From Hypomesus transpacificus (lineage: Eukaryota), in the NCBI RefSeq assembly GCF_021917145.1, contig NC_061076.1, positions 12,968,768 through 13,032,767 of the forward strand: DNA of 64,000 nucleotides, given 5' to 3'. Numbering within the stretch: position 1 is the stretch's first letter; every line of letters starts with the position of its first letter. Under the pieces are notes generated by a model. That model was not told the origin of the DNA. It saw only the letters and a list, made by a program, of their open reading frames with translations, and did no database searches. Shown piece after piece: positions 1,113 to 28,954 of this stretch. A program made the position numbers and the translations under genes.

Positions 1113-1694
1113 TACAAGTTTTACCTATATAAGTGAAACGTGGCACACAACTTCCTGGCTAGACCATATTGTAACCACAGCCGATGCTCATGACTCACTG
1201 GAAAGTATAGAGATGTGTTATGGGCTGGCCACCACTGATCACATACCAGTTGCTATGCTGCTAAATGTTGAGAGTGTACCCTTGTTGCTGGCCCCCCAAG
1301 AAAACTGGACTGGTCAAAATTGACCAAAGAGGTTCGGCACAGATATTCTCTATTAACTGACAGCTTACATAGTGATGTTGCATTTTCTAGGGATGCCCTA
1401 ATGTGCACGGATATGAACTGCAAGGATAAACATCATGCTGAAAAGCTCTGTGCCATGTATGATGATATTGTCAAATGTCTTTATGCTTCCAGTGAACCTT
1501 TTATTAATCACAAGAGTAAACACACGGCCTGTCTGGAATGAGTTTGTGTCTGAGCAACATGCTGCTGCTAGAGAAGCCTTTAGAGTCTGGTCAGAGGCAG
1601 GCAGACCCAGACAGGGAGTGCTGCTTGATAACAAAAACCTCACAAATGCTAGATTTAAATATGCACTCGTTTCATTAAGAGAAATGAAAACACA

Positions 1695-3306: not shown

Positions 3307-3527
3307 GTTTCATGTGTCGACTGGACAAGTCTGAGAACTGAATAGTAGAGGCCCTGGTCAACCCTCTAAAGAGCTGCTATCGATTACTTGGAACTTAAGA
3401 CTACATTGGCACAAAAGTCTTCATACTTTTTATGCACTGTATTATCTATGTTTTATGTTTTTGTTTTACTCTCTTTTTTATAGCTCTATGTCTGTTATTT
3501 TATGTGGAACTTGGCGTCTGAAATAAA

Positions 3528-4640: not shown

Positions 4641-4860
4641 CAAGAATAATAATAATAATAAAACTAACAATAACAATAGGTTTCCTCCTGACGGAGGAAT
4701 CCTAATAAAACTAACAATAACAATAGGTTTCCTCCTGACGGAGGAATCCTAATAATAAAACTAACAATAACAATAGGTTTCCTCCTGACGGAGGAATCCT
4801 AATAATAATAATAAAACTAACAATAACAATAGGTTTCCTCCTGACGGAGGAATCCTAAAT
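4641..4860 (+). repeat. 57-bp tandem repeat array (about 4 copies) at the 5' end of LINE copy 2
   Basis: Same unit as 1-110, with unit lengths varying by an (aat)n expansion. Confidence 0.85.
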
Positions 4861-7800
4861 ATAACTGCAAGCAGTAATGGCGGATTCCTCCAAACATTGC
4901 GAACCATTGAAAAATGTATATTCTTGACAAATTGGAACTGTATAGAAAAATCTATGCTGCAGAATTACCAATGGGATACCAAATCTGAAATATAATACCA
5001 CCAGGATCCACAAGGGCCTTTATTTCAACTCAAGGAGTGAAGGGAGGGGGCTTGGTTAGCCTATCCATTCCAGAAAGCCTTTGTGCTTTAGGGCGTGGAA
5101 TGTAGCGCCACATATGGGTAATGGTGGGACAGTTGTGGTTTGGTAATTACCCTTGGTCTATACTTTCAAAAAAGCTCGACCAGAGAATACCCCCCGCTCT
5201 CAGGGTACCGAGCTTCAGCTCAGTCATGATGCTGGGATGAATGTAGGCCTATATGTAGAGACCAGGGAGACAGACACACCGGCCAGCTGCCCTGATGGGT
5301 CCGTGGTAGATCATTAATGCGGGTTGTATCCTACAACGCTCGTGGCCTCCGAGTAGGACATACTGCTGCTGATAGATCAAGACGTTTGGTGGTGGACACA
5401 TTGCTGGACGAGAGTGACATTGTCTGCCTTCAAGAAACCTGGATGACCAAGCAAGATCTGGACAAATTGAACTCCCTACACAAGAACTTTCATGGTGCTG
5501 GAGAGTCCACTACCGATCTCAGCATGAGAATGGTTTGTGGGAGGATAGCTGGTGGTGTAGCTATACTGTGGAACATAAAATATGACCCAACGGTAAAGGT
5601 GGTGTGGCTTAACGTTGACTGGGCTATTGGGTTGGAGTTTAATCACAATTAAAATAAATGTACTATTGTAAATGTGTACACACCATATGAATCCTATGAC
5701 CATGAGGATGAATTTCAGAACAGGTTAGCTTTTATTCAGTCCTTCATAGAGGACAATAGTTCATGTTGTGTCTATGTCATGGGTGATTTTAATGCTGACA
5801 TGTCAGATAAGCGTTTATTCGCACAACATCTGCAGCAGTTCTGTAATGAAACTAAATTAATTATATCAAGCGTTATTGCCTGATACAAGTTTTACCTATA
5901 TAAGTGAAACGTGGCACACAACTTCCTGGCTAGACCATATTGTAACCACAGCCGATGCTCATGACTCACTGGAAAGTATAGAGATGTGTTATGGGCTGGC
6001 CACCACTGATCACATACCAGTTGCTATGCTGCTAAATGTTGAGAGTGTACCCTTGTTGCTGGCCCCCCAAGAAAACTGGACTGGTCAAAATTGACCAAAG
6101 AGGTTATGCACAGATATTCTCTATTAACTGACAGCTTACATAGTGATGTTGCATTTTCTAGGGATGCCCTAATGTGCACGGATATGAACTGCAAGGATAA
6201 ACATCATGCTGAAAAGCTCTGTGCCATGTATGATGATATTGTCAAATGTCTTTATGCTTTCAGTGAAGGTTTTATTAATCACAAGAGTAAGGTCCCTAAC
6301 GCACGGCCTGTCTGGAATGAGTTTGTGTCTGAGCAACATGCTGCTGCTAGAGAAGCCTTTAGAGTCTGGTCAGAGGCAGGCAGACCCAGACAGAGAGTGC
6401 TGCTTGATAACAAAAACCTCACAAATGCTAGATTTAAATATGCACTCGTTTCATTAAGAGAAATGAAAACACAATGAGAGCAGACTCGCTGGCCAGAAAG
6501 ATGCAGAATAACAATCTTACTGACTTCTGGAAGGAGGTCAAGATCATAAATAATAACAGAACTCCCCTCCCTTCTGATATCAAAGGGGTTAGTTGTCCAG
6601 AGAAGATTGCTGATCTATGGCATGAGCACTACAGTAAACTATTTAATTGTGTTCAAAGTAACACAGTGAGAATTGATAATCAATATAAAGGTATCTCTGC
6701 AGACTTGATAGTTAGATCAGTAGATATTTATGATGCCATCCACATGCTAGACAACAACAAAGCTTGTGGTATGGATTCCATTTCTGCAGAGCATCTAAAA
6801 AATGCCAGTTATAGACTCAGTCCATTTCTAGCCATGTGTCTCACTGGAATTATGGTTCATGGTGTTCTACCGAACTCTATTATGTCAGTACTGTTAGTGC
6901 CTGTTGTTAAAGATAAGGCTGGTAAACTGAACAGCATAGACAACTGTAGCGCCTCTCTAGTTTGGTGGATTTGTAATGAGAGGTGGCTAACCTGAGTTCG
7001 TTAGTAATTGTTACTAACTTAAACCAATTTAACATATGAAAAAAACAATACAACCAACTGTTAAACAAAAACAGGAAAGATTTACTTCAGACAAAAAATC
7101 AGTTCTTCAGTTATTGGTTCAACATTTACATGACATCGTAATGCACATGGACACACAATACAAACTAGCCGGCAATGCTAACTACACGAATACCTTAATT
7201 CAGTACAGTTCTACGGTGCAGGCCTGAGTGTAGCTCGTGTGCGTTGTAGCCGTAAACAAAATGGCTGTTTCGCCAGGATGGCACAAAATAACAAGGAGCT
7301 GGTACCTCGGATCAGCAGTGCGGTAGCACACGCACTGCGGCAGAAGGGCGGCAGCAGGTGAAGGAGAGACCGACCAAATACTCTCGTGGATTTACGAGAC
7401 GAACCAACTCAGGAAGAAGACTGAGGACGACGACAATCCCGACCTCCACCGGCTCCAACCTGGCACTCGCTGTCGCTAGTCTGGCGGCAAAGCCCGTGCT
7501 TAATCCAAAACCGCCAACAGCCAAACTCCTCTTTCTGGGTTATTGTTGTTGGTTGAGATATTCACCCAACAATATAAACATAACACCACTAATGATAATA
7601 TAAAATCTTCACTCTTGGTATTTTACCGTACGCTACAATTTTCTTCTCCCTCCAACTCCTCCGCTCGCTCTGTCTTTTTCTACTCCAACCTCATCTACCC
7701 CAACTTCCCGTGTTACCCTGCCCTTTGACCTCAAACCGGATTGGCTTAACATCATAATCAAAATTAAAGCAACAACATAGATTCACAAAACATTCATCTT

Positions 7801-8820
7801 ACTCTCTTCATATTTGTAACCGGTACATTTTAACATGCGTTTTTTAAACAACAGATATACATTTCCAAATGCTGTATTCAGTAAAACATGAACAATATGC
7901 ATTTCTCATCAAATCAAAATCATAGTCTCAAACCTTAAAGTCTATTTATTAAACTATGAACTTAAGTATTATGTATTCAAACTTTTATATTTATGTAATA
8001 GGATTGTTTCAACAGAAATGTTTACCACCCGGGCTACACAACTATCGACCCATTGCATTGGCCAGTATCTTGTCTAAAGTGTTTGAGAGAATTATTTGAT
8101 TGAAATTGGAAATGTATATTCTGACTGCAGAAAATCAGTTTGGTTTTAAAAGAAAACATGGTACTGATCTCTGTATCTATGCTCTGAAGGAGATTGTCTC
8201 AGGTACACAAGTCTTAATTCATCTGTATTTTTATGCTTTATTGATGCTTACAAAGCTTTCGATCGAATTTGTCATGAAAAACTGTTTATGAAGCTAATAG
8301 CGAGAGGTGTCCCTAAACCTCTTGTGAGGATTTTGGTGTTCTGGTATGCCAATCAAACTTTTCATGTTAAATGGGACAATGTTGTATCAGCTGCTTTCCA
8401 TGTTGGTAACGGAGTTCGACAAGGAGGAATTTGATTTCCCTTTTTGTTTAATATGGATATGGACGACTTATCAAGCCAGCTGAATAAGACAAATACAGGC
8501 TGTCTTGTTGGTGAATCTATTGTCAATCATCTGATGTACGCAGATGATCTGGTTCCACTCAGCCTGTTGCAACAGATGCTATGGGTGTGCTCTCAGTATG
8601 GCTTAGATCATGATATAAAATATAATGCAAAGAAAAGCCACATAATGATAGTCAGAAGTAATCAGGACAGGAAATTAACCTTCCCTACCTTTTATTTATC
8701 TGGCAGTCCCCTTGGTGTTTGTGAGGAAATAAAAGATCTGCCATGTCATTTCTGATGATTGGACAGATGACAACGATATGTATCAACAGCGCTGTCAAAT
8801 ATATTCTCAGGCCAGTATGT
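4861..8820 (+). mobile_element. RTE/Rex3-like non-LTR retrotransposon, copy 2
   Basis: About 99% identical to copy 1, at an offset of 4770 bp. It has an in-frame TAA at ~5650 where copy 1 has GAA. It carries a 1084-bp insertion at 6945-8028. Homology to copy 1 is lost at ~8820 (copy 1 position ~2943), so the 3' end is replaced or deleted. Confidence 0.7.
6945..8028. mobile_element. Nested ~1.08 kb TIR-bearing insertion inside the RT region of LINE copy 2 (unknown DNA-transposon or MITE family)
   Basis: The segment is absent from copy 1 at the exactly corresponding site (gacaac|tatcgacc). Its termini are 'tgtagcgcc...gggctaca', an inverted repeat of about 8 bp. The short flanking direct repeat 'caac' or 'acaac' is duplicated. 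Confidence 0.55.
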
Positions 8821-8989
8821 TATTAAATACGATGGGAACACATCACATTAACAATTCTAAAACGCTTGACACGCCAAATGTTGTCTTTTTTTGTCAAGCG
8901 TCCCTGAAGCTCAGATTCCGAGTCGAGTTCCATGAAGCTATTTCGTTGCAGTGAATGGGTGCAGGCACTAATCGGACTTCACCTCAAAT

Positions 8990-10270: not shown

Positions 10271-10779
10271 TGACAGGTTGATTCACCAATTGAAAAACTC
10301 ATCTGGGAATTTTGATTTTTGTAATGGGAGTGCTGAGATTTTACTGTCGCCGTTTGGCTTCCTAAAGCAGAAGAATTAGAGAATGAAAGAATTCCAAATG
10401 TTTCTAAACCATGTCTCGTACAGCATTACAGTGAGCTACACTGGTTTAAAACTACAGGTATATAAGAACAATTGTACCCATGAATTGTTTACTTGTAATA
10501 AAATGTCATAATAAAACATAAAAGGTTCATTGATATGTGAGGCATGTTCATTTTTTTAACGATTGAATACGGATGTATCACAGACCGCTCGAAAGTAAAT
10601 GTACTGATAATATCAGCGTACATCGCATTGTACATTAAATATCACAATTGTGTTTTTTATCACAATGTTAAATGAGCAATAAGTTCAGTTTGGCATTTGT
10701 TGATGCTTGGAACTCTCCGTTGTGATTACATTGAGAGCAGAACGTTTGTGCTCCCTACTGTCATGTACCAACGGAGGCA

Positions 10780-10917
10780 CTGGTATGTACCACTAGCTAC
10801 TGGCATGTACCACTAGCTACTGTCACATACCACTAGCTCCACTGGCATGTACCACTAGGTGCCAGTAGAGGCACTGGCATGTACCACTATCTACTGTCAC
10901 ATACCAGTGGAGTCACT
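10780..10917 (+). repeat. Minisatellite (~26-bp unit 'cactggcatgtaccactagctactg') abutting the MITE C 5' end
   Basis: Tandem degenerate units. A second array at 12465-12600 has no adjacent MITE. Confidence 0.7.
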
Positions 10918-10920
10918 GGC

Positions 10921-11766
10921 AGAGCCTGTTTAAGGAGAGCCTGCCCACTCCCTATTAAGCCCCATTGTACCGAATTTTGTTGCAGTTCCACCAGAGTTCC
11001 ACTGGGAGTGATCGTGGTCGAGTGCAAAATGAATGGGAGTCTATGGAGCTAAACGGCTAAATTTGTCTCTTTCGCCTGATTGTTGTTGATAAATCTCAGA
11101 TTTGATTGTAGTTTTTGCATGTTCAACATAGATTACAAGTCAAAAGTTGAATGAACGAGTACTTATGTCCTTTCGATTTCTTACATGGTAAGTCGTTGTG
11201 GCCCATAACACGCTAGCATTCTGCTAACGAATGCTGATTGGTTAGTGAAGGACTGACTACGACCAGAGATCCCGCTTGATGGCATCCGAAGCAAAAGCAG
11301 AACCAGAATGTCAGAGCATTAGCAACATTAGCAACAACATTAGCAAGCCAAAACTATTTCTAGCATGTGTATTGACAGGGAGAGCCTAACCTGTCAGCTG
11401 TGTTGTCGATGCCTCGAGAGAAAAGTGGAAGTAACCAGAGCTTGCCGTCAAGCAGTAGCTCTGATTGTACGTTGTGTATGACGTCAATGCCATTTTCAAA
11501 GGTTTTTTTAGAACAGAAAGGCGACTTTAAAAAATCCAACACCCCGCGGTGTGTATTTTTTTTGCCTCCCCTTTCGATTTCAGAATTCAAATTATTAGAC
11601 AAAAAATTATATCCTGAGAAAAGTGGATTTTGAGGGGTATAGCTCCATAGACCTCCATTCATTTTGCACTCGACCGTTGCGCCCTCATATGGAACTTGAG
11701 TGGAACTGCAACCAGTTCAGAACCCGGAAGTTTCCCGAGAGTGGGAGTTCTCTCTTTATTAGACAT
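10921..11766 (+). mobile_element. MITE family C (~850 bp, non-autonomous, ~80-bp subterminal inverted repeats), full copy
   Basis: The 5' end '...gttgcagttccaccagagttccactgggagtgatcgtggtcgagtgcaaaatgaatgggagtctatggagc' is the reverse complement of the 3' end 'gctccatagacctccattcattttgcactcgacc...gaacttgagtggaactgcaac'. Copies at 25884-26705, 29468-30290, 32439-32913 (-) and 43055-43519 (-). Confidence 0.7.
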
Positions 11767-12464
11767 GTTATTAGACAGGCTGTTTATCAATCCGAAGAAC
11801 GCTGAGAATGCAAGTACATTCTTTTGAAGAACCTTCTTGCTAGCGTCCTTACAAGAATTGTCTTGCAAGGACGGAGAATGAATTGAGATGGTTAGGGTTT
11901 TCCTGGACTCGCAGCATTATGATAACACTGACTAACTACAAAGACTAGATAACAAAGCAAAACAATGGTCCGTCTACCTGTAATTTTACGTTTTCTGTAG
12001 CCCTTGCTAACTTACAGTACCTAGTGTCTGCACTGCACTGAGATGCTAGCTAGGTTATCGACAAGTCGGAGCAAATTTACAAATGAGCCGTTTCATCAAT
12101 AAAATAAGAATATTTTCAGCGACTGAACTGCTTGTTTCTCGTCACATTTTAATTCAGATGCTGATTTACACGTACCGTTTAGCTGAAATATGAAAAGTAA
12201 AAAATTACAGTTGTGAGGTTTGTCTGCCTCGCTTGACATCTTGCAATGACTTCGGGAAATCAGAAGCATTCTTTCTGGTCAAGTCACCATCCGATGCATC
12301 ATCGATAAAAGGGGCGGATCAGGAACATTTCCGGGTATTTTTGGTGTTCTTGGTGACTTGTGTTCTTTGGATTGGAACCGTACTTGGGCAATAAAATACG
12401 ACGTCAAACGAGTTCGCAAGAACTCAAGAACGGAAAAAACGTGGATTGATAAACAGCCATTCTC

Positions 12465-12600
12465 TGGCACTGGCACGTACCACCATATATCTATGCGTAC
12501 CACTAGCCACTGTCACATGCCAGTGGAGGCACTGGCATGTACCACTAGCTACTGTCGCATACCACTCGCTCCACTGTCACGTACCACTCGCTACAGTACA
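12465..12600 (+). repeat. Minisatellite, same ~26-bp unit
   Basis: Produces the overlapping ORFs 12358-12646 with the peptide periodicity 'HVPLATV'. Confidence 0.7.
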
Positions 12601-12837
12601 GTACAGTTTCGGTTCTAACCGCTACTGCCTGACATTTCTGGTGTAGAATGGAGAGAAATTCAACATTGTGCACACTGCCAGTGAGCGAGTCTGACTGAGG
12701 CTAACGTCAAAACAGTGTAACGGGGACGCAGTCTCACTCAGATTGCCAGTTTAAACAAATCAGAAAAATTATCGGACTAGCTGTATGGGGTTCCATTTGT
12801 GCCAAAAAAGTTGAAGCTTTTGTACAATGGATCTTGG

Positions 12838-13135
12838 CGATTGCTTTGCCCTCAGTCGTTTACTTCGCAGCAGTTCTTGTGATTTGCAGCGTACCATTTG
12901 TGCCAAAAATAAGTAAACAAGATAATAAAAATAAGATGTTGCGTTTACGATGTGCCACTTCACCTGTCGTTTGCTGTGGTCGTTGCTTTTTTCTTTGGCT
13001 ATTGCTTTGCTCTCAGTCGTTTACTTTGCAGCGTTGCGTTTACAATGTTCCACTTCACCTGTCGTTTGCTGTGGTCGTTGCGTTTGTCTTTGCATCTTGA
13101 CAATCACGTGGATCTTTGCAGTTACTTGCAGTTAC
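12838..13135 (+). repeat. ~115-bp tandem repeat (about 2.5 copies), forming the outer part of the left palindrome arm
   Basis: 'attgctttgc.ctcagtcgtttact.cgcagc...ccacttcacctgtcgtttgctgtggtcgttgc' repeats. The reverse complement appears at 16590-16745. Confidence 0.7.
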
Positions 13136-13143
13136 GTAGTTAC

Positions 13144-13888
13144 TAGTGCTGTCAAACGATTAAAATATTTAATCGCGATTAATCGCATTAATGTCATAGT
13201 TAACTCGCGATTAATCAATTAATCGCACATTTTTATCTATTCTAAATGTCCCTTGATTTCTTTTTGTCCCATTCTTTTTTCAAATTTTAAAGCTCTTATC
13301 AACATGGAAAAGTGGTTCGGATTGCTTCGTGCAAATGTTTTTTTTTTAAAACAACATTGCAATCACCTGGCTTTGACGAGGGGGCGGAGAATTCGCATGA
13401 ATCGCATCAGCTGTGTGCTTGGCCATCAAGTGGTATTTCAGACTGGACGTGCTGCAATGATAGCTCAGTTAACAACGACAAAACACACAGATCACTTTGG
13501 TCTTGTCAATGGAACCATTTGGCAACTTTTTAAAAGTAAACTTTCCATTCAGAATCTTATTGGCATCCATTTCGGCGTCTCGCGCTCGCCATCCACTCAA
13601 AACGTAACGTTAGCCTACTACCAGAGAAAACGGGCTCTGCTACTACTCTTTAGCCGGCTCGCAAGCCAAACAAGTGTGTGTGGCGTGCCTGTTGTTTTAT
13701 TTCCGGTCTAGCTAGATCCAGTGTGGTGTTGTAGTCTTTCTAACGTCGGTAATTGTTGCAACAGTATGTGAAAAAAACTACAAAGTTTGTTAGGCCAAAA
13801 AGAGCGTTAATCGCGCGATAAAAAAATGTACGCCGTTAATTTGGGTTTGCGTTAACGCCGTTAATAACGCGTTAAACTGACAGCACTA
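13144..13888. mobile_element. hAT-like non-autonomous element (745 bp) with a perfect 8-bp TSD 'gtagttac'
   Basis: TSD at 13136-13143 and 13889-13896. The termini 'tagtgctgtcaaacgattaa...ttaaactgacagcacta' are inverted and carry subterminal 'taatcgcgattaatcg' repeats. The element is absent from the opposite palindrome arm (16545-16575). Confidence 0.75.
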
Positions 13889-14739
13889 GTAGTTACGTAC
13901 ATTTGTTTGCAGCGCAAAAACTATTTTTTATGTAGATTTTATTTGTCTAAGCCTCCAATCATCAAAACGAATTTTAGGGTATAATATAACCACCCCAAAA
14001 TAACCAGACGGCTGATGGATAATGTATGTGTTATGTATCATGTTACGTTGTTAGGTTCACACAGCCTACAGTCCTTATGTCAAGTTTTCAAAATGTCATG
14101 TTTCAGACTCATCTTAATATACCCTCAATTCATTTGTGAATATTTCAACAATTACACACAATACACAACAATAAACTATAAAAAAAACATGACTTAAAAA
14201 AATATACAGACAGAATATAAAGACAACCTGCCAGCTCCTAACACATAAATGATCCTTACCTTTGTATTTGATATTAGTTTTATTTTATACTCAAGAGGTA
14301 ACTGCATAATTGAAACACTATTTGACTCAACAGTCAAAGTTTTTATTACAGCAAAACCATCCAAATCTAAACAGCTTTCAAATACTATGTTACATACTCA
14401 CTTAACATACCTTTTTTTATTATAATAAAATATGTTAAAAACAACAAAATTGTGACCCTAACTAAAAAAAATCCACAACTGTGGATTGAAGGGCAAATAA
14501 TGGGTTGTAATCCAGTTTGTGTACCCACAAATAATGCTGGTAATGCTGAAAATTATATAATTTTTTCTGCATCCTTTGTTGATCTTTAGAAGCAAGATGG
14601 AATTAGACATAATTATCTAGACTTTGGACAAAAGTGTGTGGCCATTAATACAGAGCTGAAGTGAAACAACACTACTGGCCTGCACAGAGCCCCAACCTCA
14701 ACACCACAACCTTTGGGATGAATATGGCAGGTCTCATCA

Positions 14740-15530
14740 GTGCACGACTACACTAATGCTGTTCTGGCTGAATGAAAGCATATCCCATAGGGAGGGAGCT
14801 GATGTTCAGTTCCCTCTAAAGGTCCTGGGAAAGGATAGTGCCCAGGAAGCGGAAAGACTCCACAGTGGTGACTAGGGAGTCGGACAGGGTGATGGGGGTG
14901 AGTGGGGCTATATTCTTCTGAAGTCCACAACCATCTCGACTGCCTTAAGAGCATTGAGCTCTAAGTTGTTCGGGCTACACCAGGTCACCAAGTTGTCAGC
15001 TTCCCACCTATAATCAGACTTGTCCCCACCAGAGATGAGCCCAATGAGGGTGGTGTCGTACGCAAACTTCAGGAGTTTGACGGACGGATGACTGGAGGTG
15101 CAGCTGTTGGTGTACAGGGAGAAGAACAGAAGGGAGAGGACGCAGCCCTGAGGAGATCCGGTGCCGATGGACCGGGAGTCAAAGACTTGTGTTCCCAGCT
15201 TAACGCACTGCTTCCTGTCAGACAGGAAGTCTGTGATCCACCTGCAGGTGGAGTCGGTCACTTTCAGCTGGGAGAGCTTGTCCTGAAGCAGGGCGGGGAT
15301 GATGATGTTGAAGGCAGAGCTGAAGTCCACAAACAGGATCCTGGCGTAGGATACTGGGGAGTCCAGATGTTGGAGGGTGAAGTGGAGGGCCATGTTGACT
15401 GCGTTGTCTACAACACTGTTGGCTCTATAGGCAAACTTCAGGGGGTCCAGTAGAGGGTCTGTGATGGATTTGAGGTGTGCCAGCACCAGGCGCTCGAAAG
15501 ACTTCATTGCCACAGTAGTGGCAATGGAGG
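14740..15530 (-). pseudogene. L2/CR1-type LINE reverse-transcriptase fragment
   Basis: ORF 14908-15513 (-) contains FAYRANSVVDNAVNMAL...ILFVDFSSAFNII...GSPQGCVLSLLFFSLYTN...FAYDTTLIG, which are RT motifs. Confidence 0.65.
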
Positions 15531-16074
15531 AAACCAGAACTATAGTTTATAAATCTGCAATGATTCTGTGTTCTAGAAGCAACCAGGGCAAGTGCTGCTC
15601 CCCCCAAGACAATGACACAGTCAGCCAAAAAGAGCCACAGAACCTGGACTTCCAGTTCCTTCTCTCCTGCCACAGGATTATTTGACAATAATCAAATTGT
15701 TATTCAAAACATGTATTTGAATCATTGTTTACCTCAAATACTGTTAATGGAATGTTTCAGTAAAGCCGAACTACCAAGTAAAGCAGGCGATCAGGATGAA
15801 TACTGACCGTCATCCTCTTATAGTTTATTAACAGATTTTATTAAAATAAAAAAGGTATGTTAAGTGAGTGTGTTGTATGTTTAACATAAAATCAACTGAC
15901 TGTTGAGTCAAATAGTGTTTCAATTATGCAGTTACCTTTGAATATAAAATAAAACTAATATCAGATATCAACTAATAAAATGGTAAGGATCATTTATGCG
16001 TTAGGAGCTGGCAGATTGTTTTATAATCTGTCGGGATACTTATGTAAATAGATTTTTCAGTCATATTTATATTT

Positions 16075-16255
16075 ATTAGACGCTCTTATGAGCGATTTAC
16101 AGTAAGTACAGGGACATTCCCCTGAGGAAAGTAGGGTGAAGTGCCTTGCCCTAGGACACAACGTCAAATGCCTGGCCAGGAATCGAACCAGCAACCTTCA
16201 GATTAATAACCAGACTCCCTAACCGCTCAGCCATCTGACCCCCACTATAGGCTAC
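16075..16255 (-). mobile_element. tRNA-derived SINE (HpaI-like tail), inserted in the right palindrome arm
   Basis: Reverse complement of 'gctgagcggttagggagtctggttattaatctgaaggttgctggttcgattcctggccaggcatttgacgttgtgtcctagggcaaggcacttcaccctactt...ctgtaaatcgctcataagagcgtc'. Homologous copies at 25065, 33810 and 44540. Confidence 0.7.
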
Positions 16256-16744
16256 TATTTATAAAACACTCCAAAATTTATTGTTCTGTATTGTGCGTAA
16301 TTGTTGAGGTATTCACAAATGAATTGAGTCAATTTTAAGATGAGTCTGAAACATAACATTTTGAAAACTTGACATAAGCACTGTAGCCTAGGTTGTGTGT
16401 AAGCCACATAACAATGTAACACATACATTATCCAGCTATCTGGTGATTTTATACTCTTAAAATTCGTTTTTTATGATTGGAGGCTAAGACAATTAAATCT
16501 AAATAAAAAAGTTTTAGCGCTGCAAACCAATGAAATCGGCAGCGGGAGAAATCTGATTTAAAGGCAGCAGTTAGGCTACGTAACTGCAAAGATCCACGTG
16601 ATCGTCAAGATGCAACGACCACAGCAAATGACAGGTGAAGTGGAACATTGTAAACGCAACGCTGCAAAGTAAACGACTGACACCAAAGCAATAGCCAAAG
16701 ACAAAAGCAACGACCACAGCAAACGACAGGTGAAGTGGCACTCA

Positions 16745-16880
16745 CTCCTCAAGTATGTAACAGGCCACCCGCGTCAACGAATTGCTAGCTTTTCATTGGC
16801 GTAGTTGGTAGTTGGTAGACTCCTGGTTCGAGCGGATAGTGCTTCTGACGGAACTTGCAAGAGTACGTCTGTTACAAGTG
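16745..16880 (+). repeat. Repeat family D ('cactcctcaagtatgtaacaggccacccgcgtcaa...ctgacggaacttgcaa...gtctgttacac')
   Basis: Homologous to 59580-59760, and to the palindromic pair at 59250-59510. Confidence 0.6.
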
Positions 16881-18474
16881 CGTAACACTACTTGCTTTGG
16901 AGATATCGATAAGTGCTAGATGACGTATCCGTAACCAAGTGGTGTCCCATTTCTTAGGGATATGTAGCCCATACTCCTCAGTTTCGAGGGCCAAGGGCTA
17001 GGGGTAAACTAAGGGCTGGGTGTAAGGGGGAGTATTGGGATTGGCCCTTATTCTTCTCCTCTCCTCTACTACCTCTACAAAGCTACTAAAGTGTACAACA
17101 TCAGTGAGATGAAACAAGTCCTGGGTAGTGTTCCCAGATGCTGTTTATTCACGCCTGATACAATTTCAGGCATTTTTTGTGTTGGCAAACAGACACCATT
17201 CCAGAAACTTATGAATGGTGAATCAACCATCCAGTTCTGTGCATGCAAATGTGTTTTCTCCTCACACATCAAGCAAGGAATGTCTTAGAGGACCATGGGA
17301 CCAAGGCAATGGCAGTGTTTGGCGGAAAGAGTACCGATTGACTTGCCTCTTTGCGCTTCAACCTTTTTAGAAAGAAAATCGGTACTGCCAAATCATTTGT
17401 TACCCCACAACGTCTGCCTCTAACTGAGTCCTCAACCAAATACCACTGCCAAAGAGTTTACTTCCAGATCATGGTGTGGATTGGAAAGATGGCAGCCCTG
17501 TTTTGTACTTACTTTCGCATAAATATGCTTGTAACTAATTGCTGTAATATATAATTGTACTTGTAATCACTTATTTATCATGCAAATATGATTGTAAGAG
17601 CCAATTCAATGTTTTGTGTAAATTGCCTGCTATTTTTGTTTCTTAATAATTACAGGTTTACAGTGTGATTGGTGTTTGTTTCTTGGATATGTACAAGGTG
17701 TATATTATTTGATTTATTCCATTTATTTTGTACTATTAAATGTTTTGTATGCATGCGGCGAGCCTGCGCAGTTCTGCCTGGCCACGCCCACAGGAGAAAG
17801 AGTAGTAAGAAAGTCCATGAGGCTGTAAGGTAATGGAGGCAAGCAGCATAAAAGAAGAAATATTTATTTTACCGTTTTTGAAAGCACTAAAAGATGTAAG
17901 TTTTTTGCATTTAAGTTTTGGGGCAATAAAACTTGTACTCTACGTTTTTAAGATTTTCTGGTTTAGTATTTTTTCTACGCATCCGATTCTTATCTTTTGC
18001 ACCTCCAAGGAATGCGAGTTTGGACTTTGCTCCTATATTTAGTAAAATAAATCTTCTTTTTTGTTGTTTATTGAAAATCTCGTTTTATTTTTATTTTTGG
18101 TAACACGAGAAAGATTAGCTAACTAGATGCTACGTATCCGTGGGGAGAATTTCTGGCCGCGGAGATATTTTCGATTTTTAAGCCTGGAACATGATCATCG
18201 GTCAATTTTGTTGAAGGACAATCTTTGAGTGGACTTTAGTAACTTTTCCATGCTTTTTGATGGATTTTCAACCATTTCAGACTTGTTTTGAGTTGGACAC
18301 GCTAGCTACGTGTAGTTAGCTTATGCTAACACAAGAGAATGTTTCTTGCGCCTGATTAGTTCAAGTCTTTTATTTGTCAGGTACACAGAACAACACAAGG
18401 TCAGACTGGGCACTGAAATTCTTAAGACAAGACAACGCAAGCATCTGGCTTAATTTACATCTATGCTGAGCTTA

Positions 18475-18620
18475 AATAAGTGAAACTTCCTAAATATACA
18501 GATAGCAATAAATAATCAACTATACTAACCCTAATACTAAAACTCCCTAAATATACAGACAACAATAAATAATACACTATACAAACCCTAAATGCACATA
18601 ACACCTATAACAACCCAATA
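18475..18620. repeat. Minisatellite tail of the L2 element ('ctaaatatacaga.a.caataaataat..actata..aaccctaat')
   Basis: Degenerate tandem units lie immediately 3' of the LINE ORF end (- strand). Confidence 0.6.
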
Positions 18621-19970
18621 ACCTATTCTAACCTAGGTGGAGTACAGTACAATAGTGCAAAATTGCAGATCAGTGACCATGTCAATGACCATACAGGAGC
18701 CTGATGGCTAAGTACAGTGAGGTACAGTAGTGCAATGTTACTGATAGTGCAACCAGTACTGAAAGTGACAGTGTATAAGTGACTAGTGTGCAGTGAATCA
18801 ATGTCCATATCAGTGTCCATTCAGAAGCCTGATGGCCCTTGGGTAGAAACTGTTGTCCAGTCTGCGTGTGCATGACCGGATGCTGCGGTAACGGCTGCCA
18901 GACGGAAACGGGGTAAAGAGACTGAAGGATGGGTGGTAACAGTCTCTTAGAATCCTGCCGGCTTTCCTGAGGCAACGTGTGTGGTAGGTGTCCTGTAGGG
19001 CTGGGAGCTTCCTGCCGATGATGAACTCAGCAGAACGGACCACACTTCGTAGGGCCTTGCGGTCCCTGTCTATGGAGCTCCCATACCACACTGTAATAGA
19101 GCCAGTCAGAATGCTCTCTATAGTGCATCTGTAAAAGTTAGTGAGGATGGCTGATTCCATACCAAACTTCTTCAGTCTCCTCAGAGGCGTTTACGGGCCG
19201 CTTTGACCACCTTGTCCATGTGAACAGACCAGGTGAGGTCGTTGCTGATGTTCACCCCAAGGAACTTGAAGCAGCTGACCTTCTCCACTTCAGACCCGTA
19301 GATGAGTAGGGGTGCATGCTCCTCCTCCTGCCGCCTCCTATAGTCCACAATCATCTCCTTGGTCTTGCTGATGTTGAGAGAGAGGTTATTGTCCTGGCAC
19401 CTTGATGTCAGGGTGTCAACCTCCTCTCTGTAGGCTGACTCGTCACTGTCAGAGATGAGGCCCACGATGGTTGTGTCGTCAGCAAACTTAACAAGGAGGT
19501 TGGAGCTGTGCATTGCCGCACAGTTGTGAGTGAACAAGGCGAACAGGAGAGGGCTGAGCACACAGCCCTGGTGGGTGCCTGTGTTGGTGATCAGTACGGA
19601 TGAGGTGCGGTCACCGATCCTCACCACCTGTGGTCTCCCCGTCAGGAAGTGGAAGATCCACTTGCAGAGGGAGATGCTTAATCCCAGGTCCACAAGCTTG
19701 GAGGCCAGTCTGGAGGGGATGATGGTGTTGAATGCTGAGCTGTAGTCAATGAACAGCATCCTCACATACGTATTCCCTTTGTCCAGGTGGGAGAGAGTGG
19801 TGTGCATAGTCAGAGCGATGGCATCGTCTGTAGACCTGTTGGACCGGTATGCAAACTGCATAGGGTCCAGGGTGGGGGGCAGCGAGGAGCAGATGAATGA
19901 TTTGACTAGCCGCTCAAAGCTCTTCATGATGACAGAGGTCAGTGCTATCGGGCGATAGTCGTTCAAACAT
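18620..19970 (-). mobile_element. L2-clade LINE, 5'-truncated, carrying the RT domain and the ORF2 C-terminus
   Basis: ORF 19181-19966 (-) has [18 protein letters not shown]...[13 protein letters not shown]...[12 protein letters not shown]...[11 protein letters not shown]...[12 protein letters not shown] 18810-19160 (-) has the L2-typical C-terminal 'LRSVVRSAEFIIG..LP.LQD.Y..RC..KA.RI..D..HP...LF...PSG.RYRSI...T.RL.NSF.P.AIRLLN'. Confidence 0.8.
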
Positions 19971-19989
19971 GTGACCTTGATTAGGCACG

Positions 19990-22900
19990 CGCTGCAAGCA
20001 TGTACAATAATATGGAGCCAGAGAATGGGAAAGCTGCTTCAAAAAGAGTGCCAAAGATGACTGTCAAAGCCCAAGAGGAACGGCTAAACCAGTTAATAGG
20101 AACTCGGAGAGCCAAGTTGGGACATTTGACTAGGCAAATGCGCGAAATCGAAGCCTTATTAGGGGACTCTGGTAATGTGAGCAATGTCTATGAATGTATA
20201 ACTGGTGAGTTTGCACGGTCCTTTGTTGTGTTCCAAGACATTAATAGTGCGGCTAAAGATCTGATGTCTGAACATGACGTATATTTAGATCAGTTAAAGT
20301 GGTTCGAACCTAAAGCACAAGCAGTTGAGCATTTTGTGGATAAGTTTAAGGATTGGATCGAAAGAGTAAAGCTTCAACCTGGCGAAGCTGAACAATGTGA
20401 CGCTGAGATTGAATGCGACGATAGTGTTTCTAGGATACTCTTGTACTCTCAAATATCCCTCTGTAGGAAAGCATCCGTTAGTAGTCAAATAGGGTAAAAT
20501 GTTTCATCTACAACTTCCGCTAGACTAAAGGTTGAAACTGAAAGAGCGGACTTGTTAGCAAGAGCTAGTACTCTGAAGCAAAAACAAGAGCTTGAGTTAG
20601 AAGAAGCAGTGCCCAGTGCAAAGAGAGAAAACTTGGAGCTTCAAACAGCTATAGCCGCGGCCGAAGCCAAGCTTCAGGTGTTGTCAACGTATGAAACAGT
20701 AACAAGCGGTTCAGTTGTTGATCGTGCGTCAAACACTGCTGTAATCTTAGATACGCGCAGTAAAACAGAGAAAAAGGTCGAAACTGCATTGGGTGATGTA
20801 GTTATTCCAAAATCGTTTTATAGTGATGCTCCAACTGATGCTGGTATGTTTACAAAGCATGCTCGTGTTCAACAAGGGTTTGATAATGTTCAACAGTCTA
20901 TGTCTGATGCAAATGCCCCAACACAGGTTGAAGCAGGAAGTCTGTTCAGCATCATGCAACGTCAAAATGACATAGCTGAGTTTCTGATAAAACAACAGTC
21001 TTTATCTGCTCTCCCATCTATGAACATCCCAGTCTATAGTGGCGATCCGCTCTAATTTATCTTTTTTATCCGAGCATTTGAGCATGGGGTAGAGAGTAAA
21101 ACTCAGAATGACAGAGATAGGTTGTATTTCTTAAAGCAGTTTACTCAGGGGCAACCTAAACTACTTGTACGCAGTTGTCAGCACATGCCTTTTGACAGAG
21201 GCTACAAAGAGGCCCAGAAACTGCTCTACCAACATTTTGGTAACGAGTTCACCATAGCTACTGCATATAAAAACGCTTTTGCAACCAGTGCAATCGTGGT
21301 TCCAGAGTCTAAGAAACAAATAGCACAAAAGGGGACTGCAGTTCCCAGTAAGTTGTGTCCGTGCTGTAGCAATGAGCATAGCTTAGAATTTTGTGACATT
21401 CTGAAACATAAACCACACAATGATAAGCTCTTTCTCAAGAGTAAAGGGTTGTGCTATGGTTGCTTGGTACCAGGACATCTGAGCAAGGCTGTTTACAGAG
21501 ACTTACTTGTCAGACATGTACGCTGAAGCATCCAACTGTGCTTCATATAACAGATAAGAGCTCTTTAACCCCTCATAGTCATAAAAAGTTCTCAGCTGAT
21601 GCAGGTCAAATGTCACAAGTGATGAAACGTGTGGCATTACTGGGGCTGGTCAATTGACATGCGCTCTTGCCATTGTGCCAGTCAGAGTTTAGTCAAAAAA
21701 GAGTAGTCAAGAAGTGAAGACTTATGCATTCTTGGACACAGGTAGTTCAGCCACTTTCTGCACTGAGCAGTTAATGAATGAGCTGAAACTTACTGGCAAA
21801 AGGTCAAACATTGTGCTACGTACAATGGGTCAGGAGAGGTCTGTTGGTATGTGCGTTCTCACTGATCTCGAGATAAGTGGTCTGAACGGGAATCAGTTTG
21901 TTGATCTTCCTAAAGTTTTTTCTCAAAAAGAAATACCTGTTAGAAGAGAGAATATCCCGCAACAATGTGATGTCAAAAGGTGGAAATACTTCAAGGAGGT
22001 AAATCTCCCTCAAATTGATGCAGAAGTTGGGTTGTTAATAGGGACAAAAATACCCAAGGCACTTGAGCCATAGAGAATCATCAGTAGCCAAGGAGATGGG
22101 CCTTACACCGTCAAGACAATCTTAGTTTGGGTCGTTCACGGACCTTTGGTTAGAGAAGGCATTCAGAAGCGCCACTGGTGATGGCCAATAGAATTTCTGT
22201 TGTAATCTTAGAGAATCTCACCCAGCAGCAACTGAAGTATGACTTTCCTGAATGTCAGCAGGCTGAAAGATCGGAAATGTCCATAGAGGATAGACAGTTA
22301 ATAAAGTCTGTTATTCTCAGTTAATAAAGTCTCTCAATCCACAAAGCTTGATGGTCACTACTGCATTGACTTTCCACTAAAGAGAAAAGATGCAGTGTTT
22401 CCCAACAACCGTGAAGTTGCCGTGCAGCGTGCTCATTTTCTAATGAAGAAATTCAAAAGAAATTAGGGTTTCCATCAGGAGTATAGCAACTTCATAAATG
22501 ACATGTTAAAAAAGGGTCATGCAGAGAAAATTGATGATGGTGAGGTTAAAGGTATCCCTGGTAGAACCTGGTACCTTCCTCATCATGGGGTGTACCATCC
22601 CCAGAAGCACAAACTTTAAGTGGTGTTTGATTGTGCGGCTGCTTATCAAGGAAAATCTCTTAACTCTCAGCTGTTGCAGGGACCTGATTTGAACAACTCT
22701 TTTGTTGATGTGTTAATTAGGTTAAAACTAGAGCCGGTTGCTTTTGCAGCAGACGTAGAAGGGATGTTTCATCAGGTTAGGGTTCCAGCTAAAGACACAG
22801 ACCTGCTGAGATGTCTGTGGTGGCAGGAAGAGGCTGCACTGAATGTAGAGGAATATAGGATGACCGTTCATATTTTCGGTGCCACGTTGTCTCCAAGTTG

Positions 22901-25400
22901 CGCAATATATGCACTACAAAAGTGTGCAGAGTACAACAGTGACCTATACGAGTCTGAGGTAAATAGGACAGTGATGAGGAACTTTTTTTTGACGACTGTT
23001 TAAGGCTAGTGGCTACTGAGCAACAAGGCATCGATTGATTTGTGATCTGCGTGTTGTATATGCGTCTGGAGGGTTTACTCTAACCAAGTGGATTTCTAAC
23101 AGTCGCAGTGTGTTGGCATCTGTCCCCGAAGAGGATAGAGCTAAGGCAGTGAAATACTTGGATCTGGAGAAAGACAGGTTGCCTATGGAAAGGGCTTTCG
23201 GAGTGAGGTGGCGTATAGAGACAGACACGTTTAGGTTCAAGGTAAAATCTACAGGAAAACCGTTGACAAGGTGAGGGATTTTGTCTATGGTCAGCTCCAT
23301 TATATGATCCCCTTGGAATTCTGTCTCCAGTTGTTCTTCTTGCAAAACAGATATTGCAAGAGCTTTGTAGAATGAGACACAATTGGGATGACAGCATTTC
23401 TGAGACTCTCAGACATCAATGGGTTGAATGGTTGGCAGACCTACAAAAACTAAACGACTTTCAGGTTAAGAGATGTATGAAGTCAATTGACATTGACATT
23501 TCGCAGATGCCAGCGAACGAGGTTATGGCACCGTGTCACACATACTTATGGAGAACAAGGAAGGTAAACAGCATTGTGTTTTGTTATGGGTAAAGCGAGA
23601 TTAAAAAAAGTTAATGTGCCACATCTTGAGCTTACTGCTGCAGCAATGGCTGCAAAAATGGACAATATGTTGAAATCTGAGTTGGACATTGAGCTTCAGG
23701 AATCTGTGTTTTGGACGGACAGTACTACAGTCCTAAAGTATCTCAACAACGAAAGTACAAGGTTTCCAACCTTTGTAGCTAACAGAGTAACTTTGATTAG
23801 AGAGCTTTCAAACATCTCACAATGGCGATATGTAAACACGTCATTGAATCCAGCCGACAGTGCCTCAAGAAGTCTGCAGATGCTTTTCTTAAATCGCCGC
23901 TGTGGTTGTCAGGTCCACCTTTTTTTAGCAGAGCCAAACTTAGAGTGGCCAGAAATACCAGTTAAGTTAAGATGTTAAGGAAACCACAGTCAACTCCTCG
24001 TCTATCGAAGGTTTTGATGACACTTCTCAGTTTGTTTCGCACTACTCAGACTGGTACAGGTTGAGAAAAGCTATAGCATGGCTTCTTAAGGTTAAGAACG
24101 TACTTAGGTTGCTGGTCGAGAAAAGAATACAGCCGTCTCAATGTGTGGGACAAAACAACATGGCGGTCTCGGATGTTGAAAGGAGTATGAAGAACGTCAA
24201 AGCTTCTTTGCCAGAGGAAAAGGCCATAATGTGTCGAACCTGATCTTAAGATCTATACATGTTGAACTTGGTCATAGTGGTCGTAACCACATGCTGTCAA
24301 GGTTGCGAGAAAGTTATTGGATTCATAGAGCTCAAGCTGCCATACGAAAGATTTTGACTCAGTGTGTGAGATGCAAGCGCTTACATGGCAGTACCAACAA
24401 ACAGCTTATGGCATACCTCCCTCGTGACAGAATAATGCCAGATGAACCCCTGTTCACAAACGTAGGTCTTGATTATTTTGGCCCATTCAAAATCAAAAGA
24501 AGAAGAACTTTGATTAGAAGGTATGGGGTCATTTTTACTTGTCTTGCATAAAGAGCTATCCATATTGAAGTGGCGAGCTCCTTAGACACAGATTCATGTA
24601 TACATGCTCTTCGCAGATTCATTGCAAGACGGGGTCAAGTTCAGGTAATTAGGTCTGATAATGGTACAAATTTTGTTGGGGCAGAAAAAGAGTTGTGAGG
24701 CTATACAGGGGTTAGACGCATGCAAGATTCAGAGCATGTTGCTTTCAAAGGGCATTCAGTGGGTTTATAATCCTCCGGCTGTGTCTCATTTTGGAGGAGT
24801 TTGGGAATGCCAGATACCTACAATAAGTAAGGTTCTCAATTCTCTTGTAAAGCAGCAATCACTGGATGAAGAAGGTTTGCAAACGCTTGTATGTGAGGTT
24901 GAGGCAATCATTAACAGTTGACCCCTTACTAAGGTGTCAAATGACCCAAATGATCTTGAGGCTCTTACGCCGAATTATTTGTTGCTATTAAAAGGCAAGC
25001 TAGTGTTTGCTCCTGGAGTTTTTGACAAATCGGATCTATATTCCAAGCGTAGGTGGCGCAAAGTAGGGAGTCAGATGGCTGAGCGGTGAGGGAGTCGGGC
25101 TAGTAAACAGAAGGTTGCCGGATCGATTCCTTGCTGTGCCAAATTACGTTGTGTCCTTGGGCAAGGCACTTCACCCTACTTGCCTCGGGGGGAATGTCCC
25201 TGTACTTACTGTAAGTCGCTCTGGATGAGAGCGTCTGCTAAATGACTAAAATGTAAATGTAATGTAAGTACAAGATATGGCTGATTTGTTTTGGAGGCGC
25301 TTGGTGAAAGAGTACTTGCCAGATCTACAAGTAAGACAAAAGTGGCAAGGCATCACAAGTAATCTTAAGCACCAAGTCACGCTAAGCCTGACAGTTAGCC
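19990..25400 (+). mobile_element. BEL/Pao-like LTR-retrotransposon internal region (gag, protease, RT, RNase H, integrase); degenerate, no LTRs identified
   Basis: Gag-like coiled-coil ORFs at 20000-21055. CCHC-like knuckle 'CYGCLVPGHLSKA' at 21122-21526. Protease 'FLDTGSSATF' at 21714-22073. RT '[28 protein letters not shown]' at 22620-23003. RNase H 'VPHLELTAAAMAAKM...VFWTDSTTVLKYL...NPADSASR' at 23574-23978. Integrase zinc-binding 'HVELGHSGRNHMLSRLRESYWIHRAQAAIRKILTQCVRCKR' at 24231-24551, core at 24661-24921, and C-terminus continuing to ~25380 across a SINE insertion. Confidence 0.7.
25065..25270 (+). mobile_element. tRNA-derived SINE inserted into the BEL/Pao integrase region
   Basis: 'gggagtcagatggctgagcggtgagggagtcgggctagtaaacagaaggttgccggatcgattcc...gtaagtcgctctggatgagagcgtctgctaaatgactaaaatgtaaatgtaa'. 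The integrase-like reading frame resumes after the SINE. Confidence 0.75.
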
Positions 25401-28510: not shown

Positions 28511-28954
28511 TCTATATCCCCTAAGATAACCATTTTGACACAGCAAGCTATGTAAGGGGGATGAGTTCATTACTGTATCGGTCCTTTCAGGGCAAAGGAA
28601 GACCCGTCCACTTTGCCTCGGGGTGCTGTTTGCCATGTCGGGTCTTATTTTCCCGATAACCGGCATTCTTTTCATTATCCCGCCTATTACACGGCTACTT
28701 GCCAAAACGAAAAAATTATTTAACACAGTATGTCTTTTACAAATTATTTGTTACCATTCGTAGTGTTGATCAGCAGAGAAATAGTTTGCCAAAGACTTTG
28801 AACTTCAGATCAGCTGACGTCGCTAAGCAACGGAATACGCTGTGGTTGAAAAGTTAGCAGACTACTTGTGGAGTGCTACGAAAGACGTGAATCCGAGGCA
28901 AAAAGGCCACTTCCCTTGACAGCGGTCAATTATGCATAGCAACGGTCAAATATA

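Follow-up and report, generated by a model that had tools for sequence, protein, structure and literature searches.

An old, decayed inverted repeat with arm-specific transposon insertions upstream of smelt SH2B1

The description of a 3.9-kb palindrome in the window (the whole 64-kb stretch of Hypomesus transpacificus DNA analysed here) raised the question of whether this structure constitutes an active palindrome, a mobile element or the remains of a local rearrangement. The earlier note had placed the palindrome at positions 12838-16745, and inverted homology was indeed detected close to these coordinates. The inverted repeat contained in 12952-16741 is real, but old and much decayed; it most likely represents an inverted duplication of ~0.74 kb in transposon-rich DNA, with the start codon of SH2B1 ~20 kb downstream.

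Structure and boundaries of the inverted repeat

BLAST comparison of the left (12952-14441) and right (15825-16741) arms outlined four collinear inverted blocks, far above chance, pairing 12952-13125 with 16580-16741 (E 9e-65), 13900-14175 with 16277-16532 (E 2e-59), 14194-14336 with 15897-16047 (E 2e-42) and 14392-14441 with 15825-15873 (E 1e-11). Both arms had been reported to be ~1.4 kb long, a size that holds for the left arm, which spans 1,490 bp including a hAT-type element, but not for the right arm, which spans 917 bp including a SINE. Without these insertions each arm measures ~735 bp. The arm-to-arm distance was computed on a gap-aware alignment from which both arm-specific insertions had been taken out (736 versus 729 bp), yielding 92.2% identity over 656 aligned sites, a K2P distance of 0.082 and 153 gap columns. 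Arm identity is hence well above background.

The outer block of the left arm (12952-13143, forward strand) is in register with 16566-16741 and shows 96.5% identity over 170 aligned sites, whereas the middle and inner blocks (13898-14441, forward strand) present 90.4% identity to 16277-16540 and 91.4% identity to 15825-16059. On the reverse strand, the arm alignment delimited the right arm as an inner block at 15825-16064 and as middle and outer blocks, including the tandem units described below, at 16244-16741. Identity is therefore uneven along the arms, the outer block (96.5%) exceeding the inner ones (90-91%; Fisher p 0.019). The DNA of both arms is AT-rich and non-coding.

A tandem repeat at the outer ends of the arms had also been noted, with an assigned length of 115 bp. 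Its presence and location were borne out, but its period is 95 bp, with about two units in each arm. The left arm contains two tandem units at 12938-13121 (forward strand, defined by a repeat spacing of 95), and comparison of the repeats identified 1.85 units in the right arm at 16578-16741 (reverse strand). An additional partial unit, corresponding to unit positions 58-95 and 92% identical to the unit, is present only on the left, at 12834-12871 (forward strand), where 66 bp of unrelated sequence part it from the left arm. Further degenerate units, perceived by eye at ~12790 and ~12891, did not score above shuffled sequence. Units in register between the arms are 96-97% alike, whereas neighbouring units inside one arm are only 89-93% alike, indicating that the tandem repeat predates the duplication.

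The right boundary of the palindrome is marked by a small tRNA-like repeat (16742-16878, forward strand) that abuts the right arm from outside and is 5'-truncated and internally deleted. Searches for homology past the outer ends of the arms, with or without skipping this small repeat, returned nothing better than shuffled sequence. Neither a target-site duplication (TSD) or direct repeat flanking the inverted repeat nor common outer termini were found, and the two outer ends differ in extent. The possibility that the right arm had inserted into the small tRNA-like repeat and split it, generating a TCA(C)TCCTC TSD, was rejected, since the flank alignment was no better than shuffles (it scored 21, whereas the shuffles averaged 17.9 with an sd of 2.8, and 45 of 300 of them scored as high). 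Furthermore, the missing 5' part of this repeat was not found at the left flank of the inverted repeat.

Insertions in the arms and contents of the spacer

The left arm, and only the left arm, is interrupted by a 746-bp non-autonomous hAT-type element (13144-13889, forward strand), identified through its terminal inverted repeat (TIR), its TSD and a paralogue in Osmerus mordax. Sequence inspection and the arm alignment define a perfect 8-bp TSD, GTAGTTAC, at 13136-13143 on the left and 13890-13897 on the right. The TIR is perfect over 11 bp (11/11), TAGTGCTGTCA, and fits the hAT criterion of a short TIR starting with YARNG. A whole-length paralogue with the same ends and 86% identity was detected in the O. 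mordax SH2B1 locus (L001, 28659-29370), where it carries an 8-bp TSD of its own, ATATAAAC, pointing to mobility of the hAT element. A weak zf-BED match was also observed on its minus strand (E 0.0017, 18.8 bits, under the 20.6-bit Pfam cutoff). The 8-bp TSD and the TIR hence assign the element to the hAT superfamily, as a non-autonomous derivative, in agreement with its initial description as a hAT MITE.

The SINE reported in the right arm was likewise confirmed as a 179-bp, tRNA-type insertion restricted to that arm (16065-16243, reverse strand), which the family alignment places at 10.6% divergence from the consensus. Three further copies of this family are present in the 64-kb window and at least 10 in the 102 kb of O. 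mordax L001. The UnaL2 3' element of Rfam was recognised in sibling copies; in the old copy at 16065-16243, with its decayed tail, the search for it returned nothing at E<=1. Rfam searches for RNA families over 12000-20500, including tRNA and UnaL2, returned none at E<=1, and ARAGORN called no tRNA.

The arms are separated by an asymmetric spacer of 1,383 bp (14442-15824), encompassing a reverse-transcriptase (RT) fragment and ~660 bp of other sequence, of which a weak Tc1-like remnant forms part and ~540 bp the rest. The two sides of the spacer are not inverted homologues of each other, and a reading of both as decayed continuations of the arms, into whose former centre the RT had inserted, was rejected. 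The RT fragment (14792-15515, reverse strand; Pfam RVT_1, E 5.8e-13) derives from a LINE, is truncated at both ends and has 1,786 teleost homologues. An exact-protein look-up of its ORF returned no record. Three LINE copies in O. mordax, each ~2.5 kb or longer and among them L001 3828-6760, show 91% identity to the fragment, which compared with them is short of ~690 bp at its 3' end and of at least 1,075 bp at its 5' end. Upstream ORFs in one longer copy read as endonuclease-like, without a Pfam hit, and the sole Pfam match in the C-terminal region of the LINE is ALKBH8_N. The spacer thus contains a LINE RT, as the earlier note had proposed, with L2 as a candidate label. Unlike the local SINEs, the three O. 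mordax relatives presented no Rfam UnaL2 3' element at their 3' ends, and we take the fragment to belong probably to the CR1/L2/Rex1 group. The O. mordax copies are not flanked by arm sequence, indicating that the RT and the arms are not parts of one element. Adjacent to the RT fragment lies a probable, weakly supported C-terminal remnant of a Tc1/mariner transposase (14672-14790, forward strand), for which the one line of support is the motif WPAQSPNLN, matching a DDE_3 transposase of O. mordax at 7/9 residues (E 2e-4); no Pfam or PDB match was obtained for this remnant.

Given that the hAT element and the SINE are each confined to one arm, the parsimonious order of events is that the palindrome formed before both insertions, as had been argued previously. 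The age of the SINE provides a caveat. Its divergence from the family consensus (10.6%, or 9.9% at non-CpG sites; K2P 0.114) contrasts with a divergence per arm since the split of 3.3-4.1% (distance 0.041), and the arm-specific SINE hence looks older than the arm split. Three of its 20 differences from the consensus are, however, shared sub-family variants, and the consensus was built from younger copies. Retaining the simple order would therefore require an older SINE subfamily, faster decay of the SINE or arm-to-arm gene conversion.

Origin of the inverted repeat

No other copy of the arm sequence was identified in 166 kb of smelt DNA, comprising the 64-kb window and 102 kb of O. mordax sequence from the SH2B1 locus, an extent of sequence with which an arm family of up to a few thousand genome copies would still be compatible. 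For comparison, the same 166 kb contain at least 13 copies of the SINE, three of the LINE and one of the hAT element. Synteny with O. mordax begins at window position 35789 (L001 8423), the preceding 8.4 kb of L001 being unrelated, and the orthologous palindrome site lies outside the 102-kb locus compared. Exact-pattern scans of viral contigs and JGI metagenome contigs with the most conserved arm segments returned no match, and a 754-aa concatenate of stop-free arm translations yielded nothing at E<=1 against 5.8 billion proteins. Orthologous non-coding divergence from O. mordax amounts to 0.052-0.072, against an arm-to-arm K2P of 0.082, dating the duplication roughly to the split between both species or slightly before it.

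Among the possible origins, a local inverted duplication, of which the inverted repeat would be the remains, is the likeliest, with about an even chance. A ~0.74-kb segment of locus-native, AT-rich non-coding DNA, already bearing the 95-bp tandem repeat at one end, would have been copied in inverted orientation 1.4 kb downstream. This could have occurred by fold-back priming, or by a nascent or resected 3' end switching template onto its own complementary strand and then rejoining, and either process would generate the order source, spacer, inverted copy. Decay alone would have followed, with ~8% substitutions, many indels and the entry of the hAT element into the left arm and of the SINE into the right. 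The left arm probably served as the source from which the right arm was copied, since only on the left does the repeat array extend past the duplicated segment, and the right arm stops abruptly at a truncated, unrelated repeat. The collinear, significant arms, the in-register tandem units and the lack of further copies in 166 kb all argue for a local duplication, as do the absence of homology past the outer ends and of shared termini. Junction microhomology was not demonstrable at the present level of decay.

The window contains another orphan inverted repeat at 40367-42185, similar in size but unrelated in sequence, which shows no TSD and is common to O. mordax. Its presence suggests that local inverted duplication recurs in this region. 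Several observations count against a local duplication. Paralogues within the hAT (0.076) and LINE (0.084-0.091) families lie as far apart as the two arms do (0.082), as in a single transposition burst, and tandem sub-repeats at the outer ends of long inverted arms resemble those of foldback-type transposons. In addition, the K2P of the SINE (0.114 versus 0.041 per arm) speaks against a simple sequence of duplication and insertion.

The earlier note had contemplated a large foldback transposon, and a low-copy, non-autonomous foldback or long-TIR DNA transposon is a possible, if doubtful, origin. The arms would then be TIRs with 95-bp sub-terminal repeats and the spacer a decayed interior, later entered by other transposons, while a deletion would have removed the right terminus together with part of the small repeat next to it. 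Long inverted arms (~735 bp, 92.2% identity) with tandem repeats at their outer ends are consistent with such an element, other transposon families active in this genome are of an age that fits the arm divergence, and a low-copy family would not be expected to show up in 166 kb. The proposed search for the same palindrome elsewhere nevertheless recovered no second copy in either the window or the 102 kb of O. mordax, the structure lacks a TSD and matching outer termini, with the left arm reaching further than the right, and the pattern scans and the search with translated arms were empty. Moreover, the absence of the missing 5' part of the small repeat from the left flank is contrary to an insertion into that repeat.

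Alternatively, two independent insertions of one medium-copy interspersed repeat, in opposite orientation and 1.4 kb apart, might have produced an accidental palindrome. We consider this unlikely. The region is saturated with transposons, the arm-to-arm distance equals the typical paralogue distances of other families, and a small, multi-copy repeat does form a tight inverted pair elsewhere in the window (59252-59757). The lack of any other arm-family copy in 166 kb, however, implies a low density that makes chance adjacency improbable, and the individual arms are devoid of flanking TSDs, the candidate at the right arm having failed against shuffles. A second, unrelated orphan inverted repeat within 64 kb would also require the coincidence to have happened twice.

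Whatever its origin, the inverted repeat could be older than the identity of its arms implies, with arms partly homogenised by gene conversion, an addition to any of these readings that we regard as improbable. Arms kept similar by gene conversion would account for a one-arm SINE that looks older than the arm split, and the uneven identity of the arms points in the same direction. Against this, the shared sub-family variants and the younger copies behind the SINE consensus weaken a contrast that involves small numbers, a 41-bp perfect run between the arms is expected by chance at ~10% differences, and the inverted repeat at 40367-42185 shows no concerted evolution since the species split. The joint proposition that the locus harbours an undescribed low-copy smelt transposon of foldback type, with long TIRs and 95-bp sub-terminal repeats, and/or a small autosomal palindrome under arm-to-arm gene conversion, is likewise doubtful. 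An assembly artefact has a negligible probability, be it a foldback read of chimeric origin or an inverted duplication that was collapsed or wrongly joined. Artefactual foldbacks yield near-identical arms without a spacer, whereas here 8% substitutions and 153 gap columns set the arms apart, each arm has its own transposon insertion, one of which retains an intact TSD, and the spacer between them is asymmetric and 1,383 bp long.

Cruciform potential and relation to known systems

The initial description had also raised the possibility of cruciform formation and instability. In duplex DNA, this potential drops steeply with spacer length and arm divergence, with a ~40-fold reduction between 12-bp and 20-bp spacers (PMC10164571). 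The 1,383-bp spacer, the 92% arm identity with 153 gap columns and the arm insertions of 746 and 179 bp make cruciform extrusion unlikely at the present inverted repeat, and the similar inverted repeat elsewhere in the window has been retained by two species.

Among known systems, spaced interstitial inverted duplications arising by fold-back priming or template switching (quasi-palindromes) share with the smelt repeat their inverted arms around a unique, asymmetric spacer, their locus-unique arms and one abrupt breakpoint against unrelated DNA. The smelt repeat differs in being old and decayed, at 92% identity, so that its junctions no longer preserve the signatures that would establish how it formed. 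The foldback-type and long-TIR transposons include the Drosophila FB elements and the Galileo/P-superfamily elements, whose TIRs have grown through tandem repeats. The smelt repeat recalls these elements in its inverted arms, several hundred bp long, in its outer tandem sub-repeats and in its heterogeneous middle, but it presents no TSD, unequal ends and only ~2 units. It also lacks a second copy in 166 kb and any transposase remnant that could be assigned to such an element. Inverted pairs of interspersed repeats, such as Alu, resemble it in an arm divergence typical of copies of similar age and in a transposon-rich setting, but the smelt arm sequence is not detectably repetitive beyond the locus (166 kb). 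Lastly, the gene-converting palindromes of sex chromosomes (human Y P1-P8 and X-linked inverted repeats) share the arm-spacer-arm layout, and there is a hint that the smelt arms are more alike than the age of a one-arm insertion predicts; the smelt repeat is, however, 100-1,000x smaller, its arms are 92% rather than >99.9% identical, and they carry no genes.

The inverted repeat is thus ordinary genome wear, and neither an active palindrome nor a proven new mobile element, with no demonstrated function. It carries little weight beyond annotation. Should the unit prove mobile, the teleost repertoire would gain a family of foldback type, and should its arms prove homogenised, it would offer a small model for palindrome gene conversion. 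As it stands, the locus provides a worked example of how a decayed inverted duplication can be dated through nested transposons and the locus of a sister species. It also illustrates that kb-scale, wide-spacer inverted repeats last for millions of years in a teleost genome, the second one in the window being common to O. mordax.

Architecture of the inverted repeat

The inverted structure described in the earlier note was borne out by a repeat search and by self-BLAST of the window, which returned four collinear inverted blocks relating a left arm (12952-14441) to a right arm (15825-16741) as its reverse complement. These blocks pair 12952-13125 with 16580-16741 (E 9e-65, identity 90% including gaps), 13900-14175 with 16277-16532 (E 2e-59), 14194-14336 with 15897-16047 (E 2e-42) and 14392-14441 with 15825-15873 (E 1e-11). 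Global alignment revealed that collinearity is broken by two large blocks, one per arm. Once these insertions are taken out, the arms measure 736 and 729 bp and present 92.2% identity over 656 aligned sites (19 transitions, 32 transversions; K2P 0.082), with 153 gap columns. Identity is uneven along the arms, reaching 96.5% in the outer block and 90-91% in the inner blocks (Fisher p 0.019). The left and right sides of the 1,383-bp spacer (14442-15824) are not inverted homologues of each other, and no homology was found past the outer arm ends.

The tandem repeat previously placed at these outer ends is present, with a period of 95 bp and not 115 bp. Two units lie in the left arm (12938-13032 and 13033-13121), with a detached partial unit on the same side (12834-12871), and 1.85 units lie in the right arm (16741-16578). 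Same-register units are 96-97% identical between arms, more alike than neighbours inside one arm (89-93%), indicating that the tandem repeat is older than the arm duplication. The inverted repeat itself is hence confirmed, with its coordinates and repeat period requiring correction.

The arms are diverged, indel-rich, interrupted differently and asymmetrically spaced, which excludes the assembly artefact contemplated earlier. The suggested potential for cruciform formation and instability is unsupported for arms of 92.2% identity separated by 1,383 bp. In duplex DNA, inverted-repeat instability declines sharply as the spacer lengthens and the arms diverge, being about 40-fold lower at a 20-bp than at a 12-bp spacer and gone at 75% identity, and distant, divergent inverted repeats interact only in long single-stranded regions (PMC10164571).

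Transposons nested in the arms and spacer

The left-arm insert (13144-13889, 746 bp) is a hAT-type element, as previously proposed. It starts with TAGTGCTGTCA, terminates in the exact complement of TAGTGCTGTCA and is flanked by a perfect 8-bp target-site duplication, GTAGTTAC (13136-13143 and 13890-13897). A whole-length copy in L001, the 102-kb Osmerus mordax SH2B1 locus (28659-29370, 86% identical), is bounded by an equally perfect 8-bp duplication of another sequence, ATATAAAC. The element retains a putative BED-finger remnant with a weak match (E 0.0017) under the Pfam cutoff, and hAT paralogues show a pairwise K2P of 0.076.

The SINE reported to interrupt only the right arm was likewise recovered (16065-16243, minus strand). 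Its family is represented by three other window copies and by at least ten copies in L001. Sibling copies carry the Rfam UnaL2 LINE 3' element, for which the right-arm copy, too decayed, gave no score. In the global alignment the left arm keeps CTAT-AAAAAAAAC-ATGACT at the equivalent place, and the SINE therefore took the place of a 9-bp A-run; this fits a SINE insertion that removed a few bases of the target site, and not a deletion in the left arm.

Copies of this abundant family were located at 25066-25262, 33805-33998 and 44542-44735 and at seven L001 sites, their 3' 54 nt matching UnaL2 above the gathering score. L001 also contains lone UnaL2-like tails without SINE bodies (e.g. 576-627, 1522-1569 and 3314-3353), one of which comes after an ORF (965-1513, minus strand) read as a putative LINE C-terminal region, with no Pfam match. 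One window copy is flanked by a 118-bp direct repeat (33586-33703 and 34015-34132, 91.5% identity), which may be a local duplication tied to the insertion of the bracketed SINE.

The spacer contains a frameshifted LINE reverse transcriptase (RT) fragment (14792-15515, minus strand; RVT_1 E 5.8e-13). The RT identification stands, and the L2 label was not confirmed: no UnaL2-type tail was found at the 3' ends of its O. mordax relatives, the C-terminus of which matched only ALKBH8_N in Pfam. The fragment has 1,786 teleost relatives, and the O. mordax locus harbors three copies, 91% identical to it and each about 2.5 kb or longer; that at L001 3828-6760 also presents upstream ORFs. LINE paralogues show pairwise K2P of 0.084-0.091. 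Compared with the O. mordax copies, the window fragment is missing at least 1,075 bp on the 5' side and about 690 bp at the 3' end, and is therefore no simple 5'-truncated LINE inserted into a pre-existing centre. Arm sequence does not flank the O. mordax RT copies, indicating that RT and arms are not one element.

Adjoining the RT is a probable Tc1-type transposase tail (14672-14790, plus strand), whose motif WPAQSPNLN has 7 of 9 residues in common with a DDE_3 transposase of O. mordax (E 2e-4); the tail had no match of its own in Pfam or PDB. About 540 bp of spacer lie outside both remnants. A second LINE RT ORF of 261 aa (19181-19966, minus strand; RVT_1 E 2.7e-28) shares the orientation of the central fragment at a distance of 3.7 kb, and its protein identity of only 48% to the central RT assigns it to a different family.

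Age and probable origin of the inverted repeat

The arm divergence corresponds to a K2P of 0.041 per lineage, and orthologous non-coding sequence of the window and O. mordax differs by 0.052-0.072 pairwise (about 0.03 per lineage). Judged from these distances, the arm split is similar in age to, or slightly older than, the split from O. mordax, and is coeval with the main transposon burst seen at the locus. The right-arm SINE differs from its family consensus by 10.6% (K2P 0.114; non-CpG 0.099), compared to 3.6-4.8% (K2P 0.037-0.048) for its siblings, and looks two to three times as old as the arm split. Part of this excess is explained by an older source sub-family, as shared sub-family variants account for 3 of the 20 differences; the remainder could reflect accelerated decay of this GC-rich SINE, or gene conversion between the arms.

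The structure is an inverted duplication of an ordinary kind, old and decaying, in which transposons are nested. The earlier reading is upheld as an observation and only partly as an interpretation. Three histories would account for a two-copy structure, and of these we regard a local inverted duplication as the likeliest and as reasonably plausible. Arm sequence occurs at a single locus in the 166 kb covered from two smelts. Scans of viral and JGI metagenome contigs with arm segments, a protein search with translated arm sequence and an exact-match look-up of the RT ORF returned no match. The 95-bp array runs past the duplicated segment on the left only, and the right arm stops abruptly at a 5'-truncated unrelated repeat. 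By the mechanism we infer, a 3' end would fold back to prime, or switch template, on its own complement, and subsequent rejoining would leave source, spacer and inverted copy in that order.

The large foldback transposon suggested earlier, here a low-copy foldback or long-TIR element, is unlikely. The outer tandem repeats speak for it, as does an arm-arm distance matching those of transposon families of the same age, but the arm-spacer-arm unit has neither target-site duplication nor common termini and is single-copy in the 166 kb. Two copies of a single interspersed repeat that landed by chance in inverted orientation are likewise unlikely, as their family would have to be dense enough to pair and yet be missing elsewhere in the same 166 kb.

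Local inverted duplication also draws support from a second, unrelated orphan inverted repeat 24 kb away (40367-40896 and 41670-42185), which has 88% identical arms, each about 520 bp long, around a spacer of some 770 bp, and at which no target-site duplication was seen either. It is kept at the orthologous O. mordax site (L001 about 13000-15730). Identity is 94-95% between orthologous arms and 88-89% between paralogous ones, within and across species, indicating that it is older than the species split and has since undergone neither concerted evolution nor loss. Its survival in both smelts is an example of stability in a similar inverted repeat.

The SH2B1 locus and neighbouring repeats

SH2B1 has its first coding exon in the large ORF at 37349-39088 (97% identical to the O. 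mordax protein). The palindrome lies about 20.6 kb upstream of this start codon, within a transposon-saturated region. Collinearity with L001 begins abruptly at 35789 (L001 8423), and the 8.4 kb of L001 upstream of this point are unrelated to the window. The comparison of both sequences indicates rapid transposon turnover or rearrangement upstream of SH2B1.

Among the neighbouring repeats, a young LINE with endonuclease and RT ORFs is present in two direct copies with 99% identity (1-2949 and 4772-8826), pairing 1-2166 with 4772-6945 and 2158-2949 with 8035-8826; the second is broken by about 1.1 kb (6946-8034). A satellite-like repeat (GTACCACT...GGCACTGGCA; 42-bp period, 20 to 22-bp sub-period) lies a little to the left of the palindrome (12466-12604) and again 1.7 kb further upstream (10757-10921). 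Between the second LINE and the 25-kb SINE, a run of plus-strand ORFs (20000-24000) looks like putative LTR-type gag and pol. Two copies of a small tRNA-like repeat are closely paired in inverted orientation (59252-59418 and 59591-59757, 96% identity, 172-bp spacer), with a nested partial direct copy (59414-59498). The right arm of the palindrome directly adjoins a truncated copy (16742-16878), and O. mordax has fragments of the repeat (L001 57962-58079 and 64173-64235).
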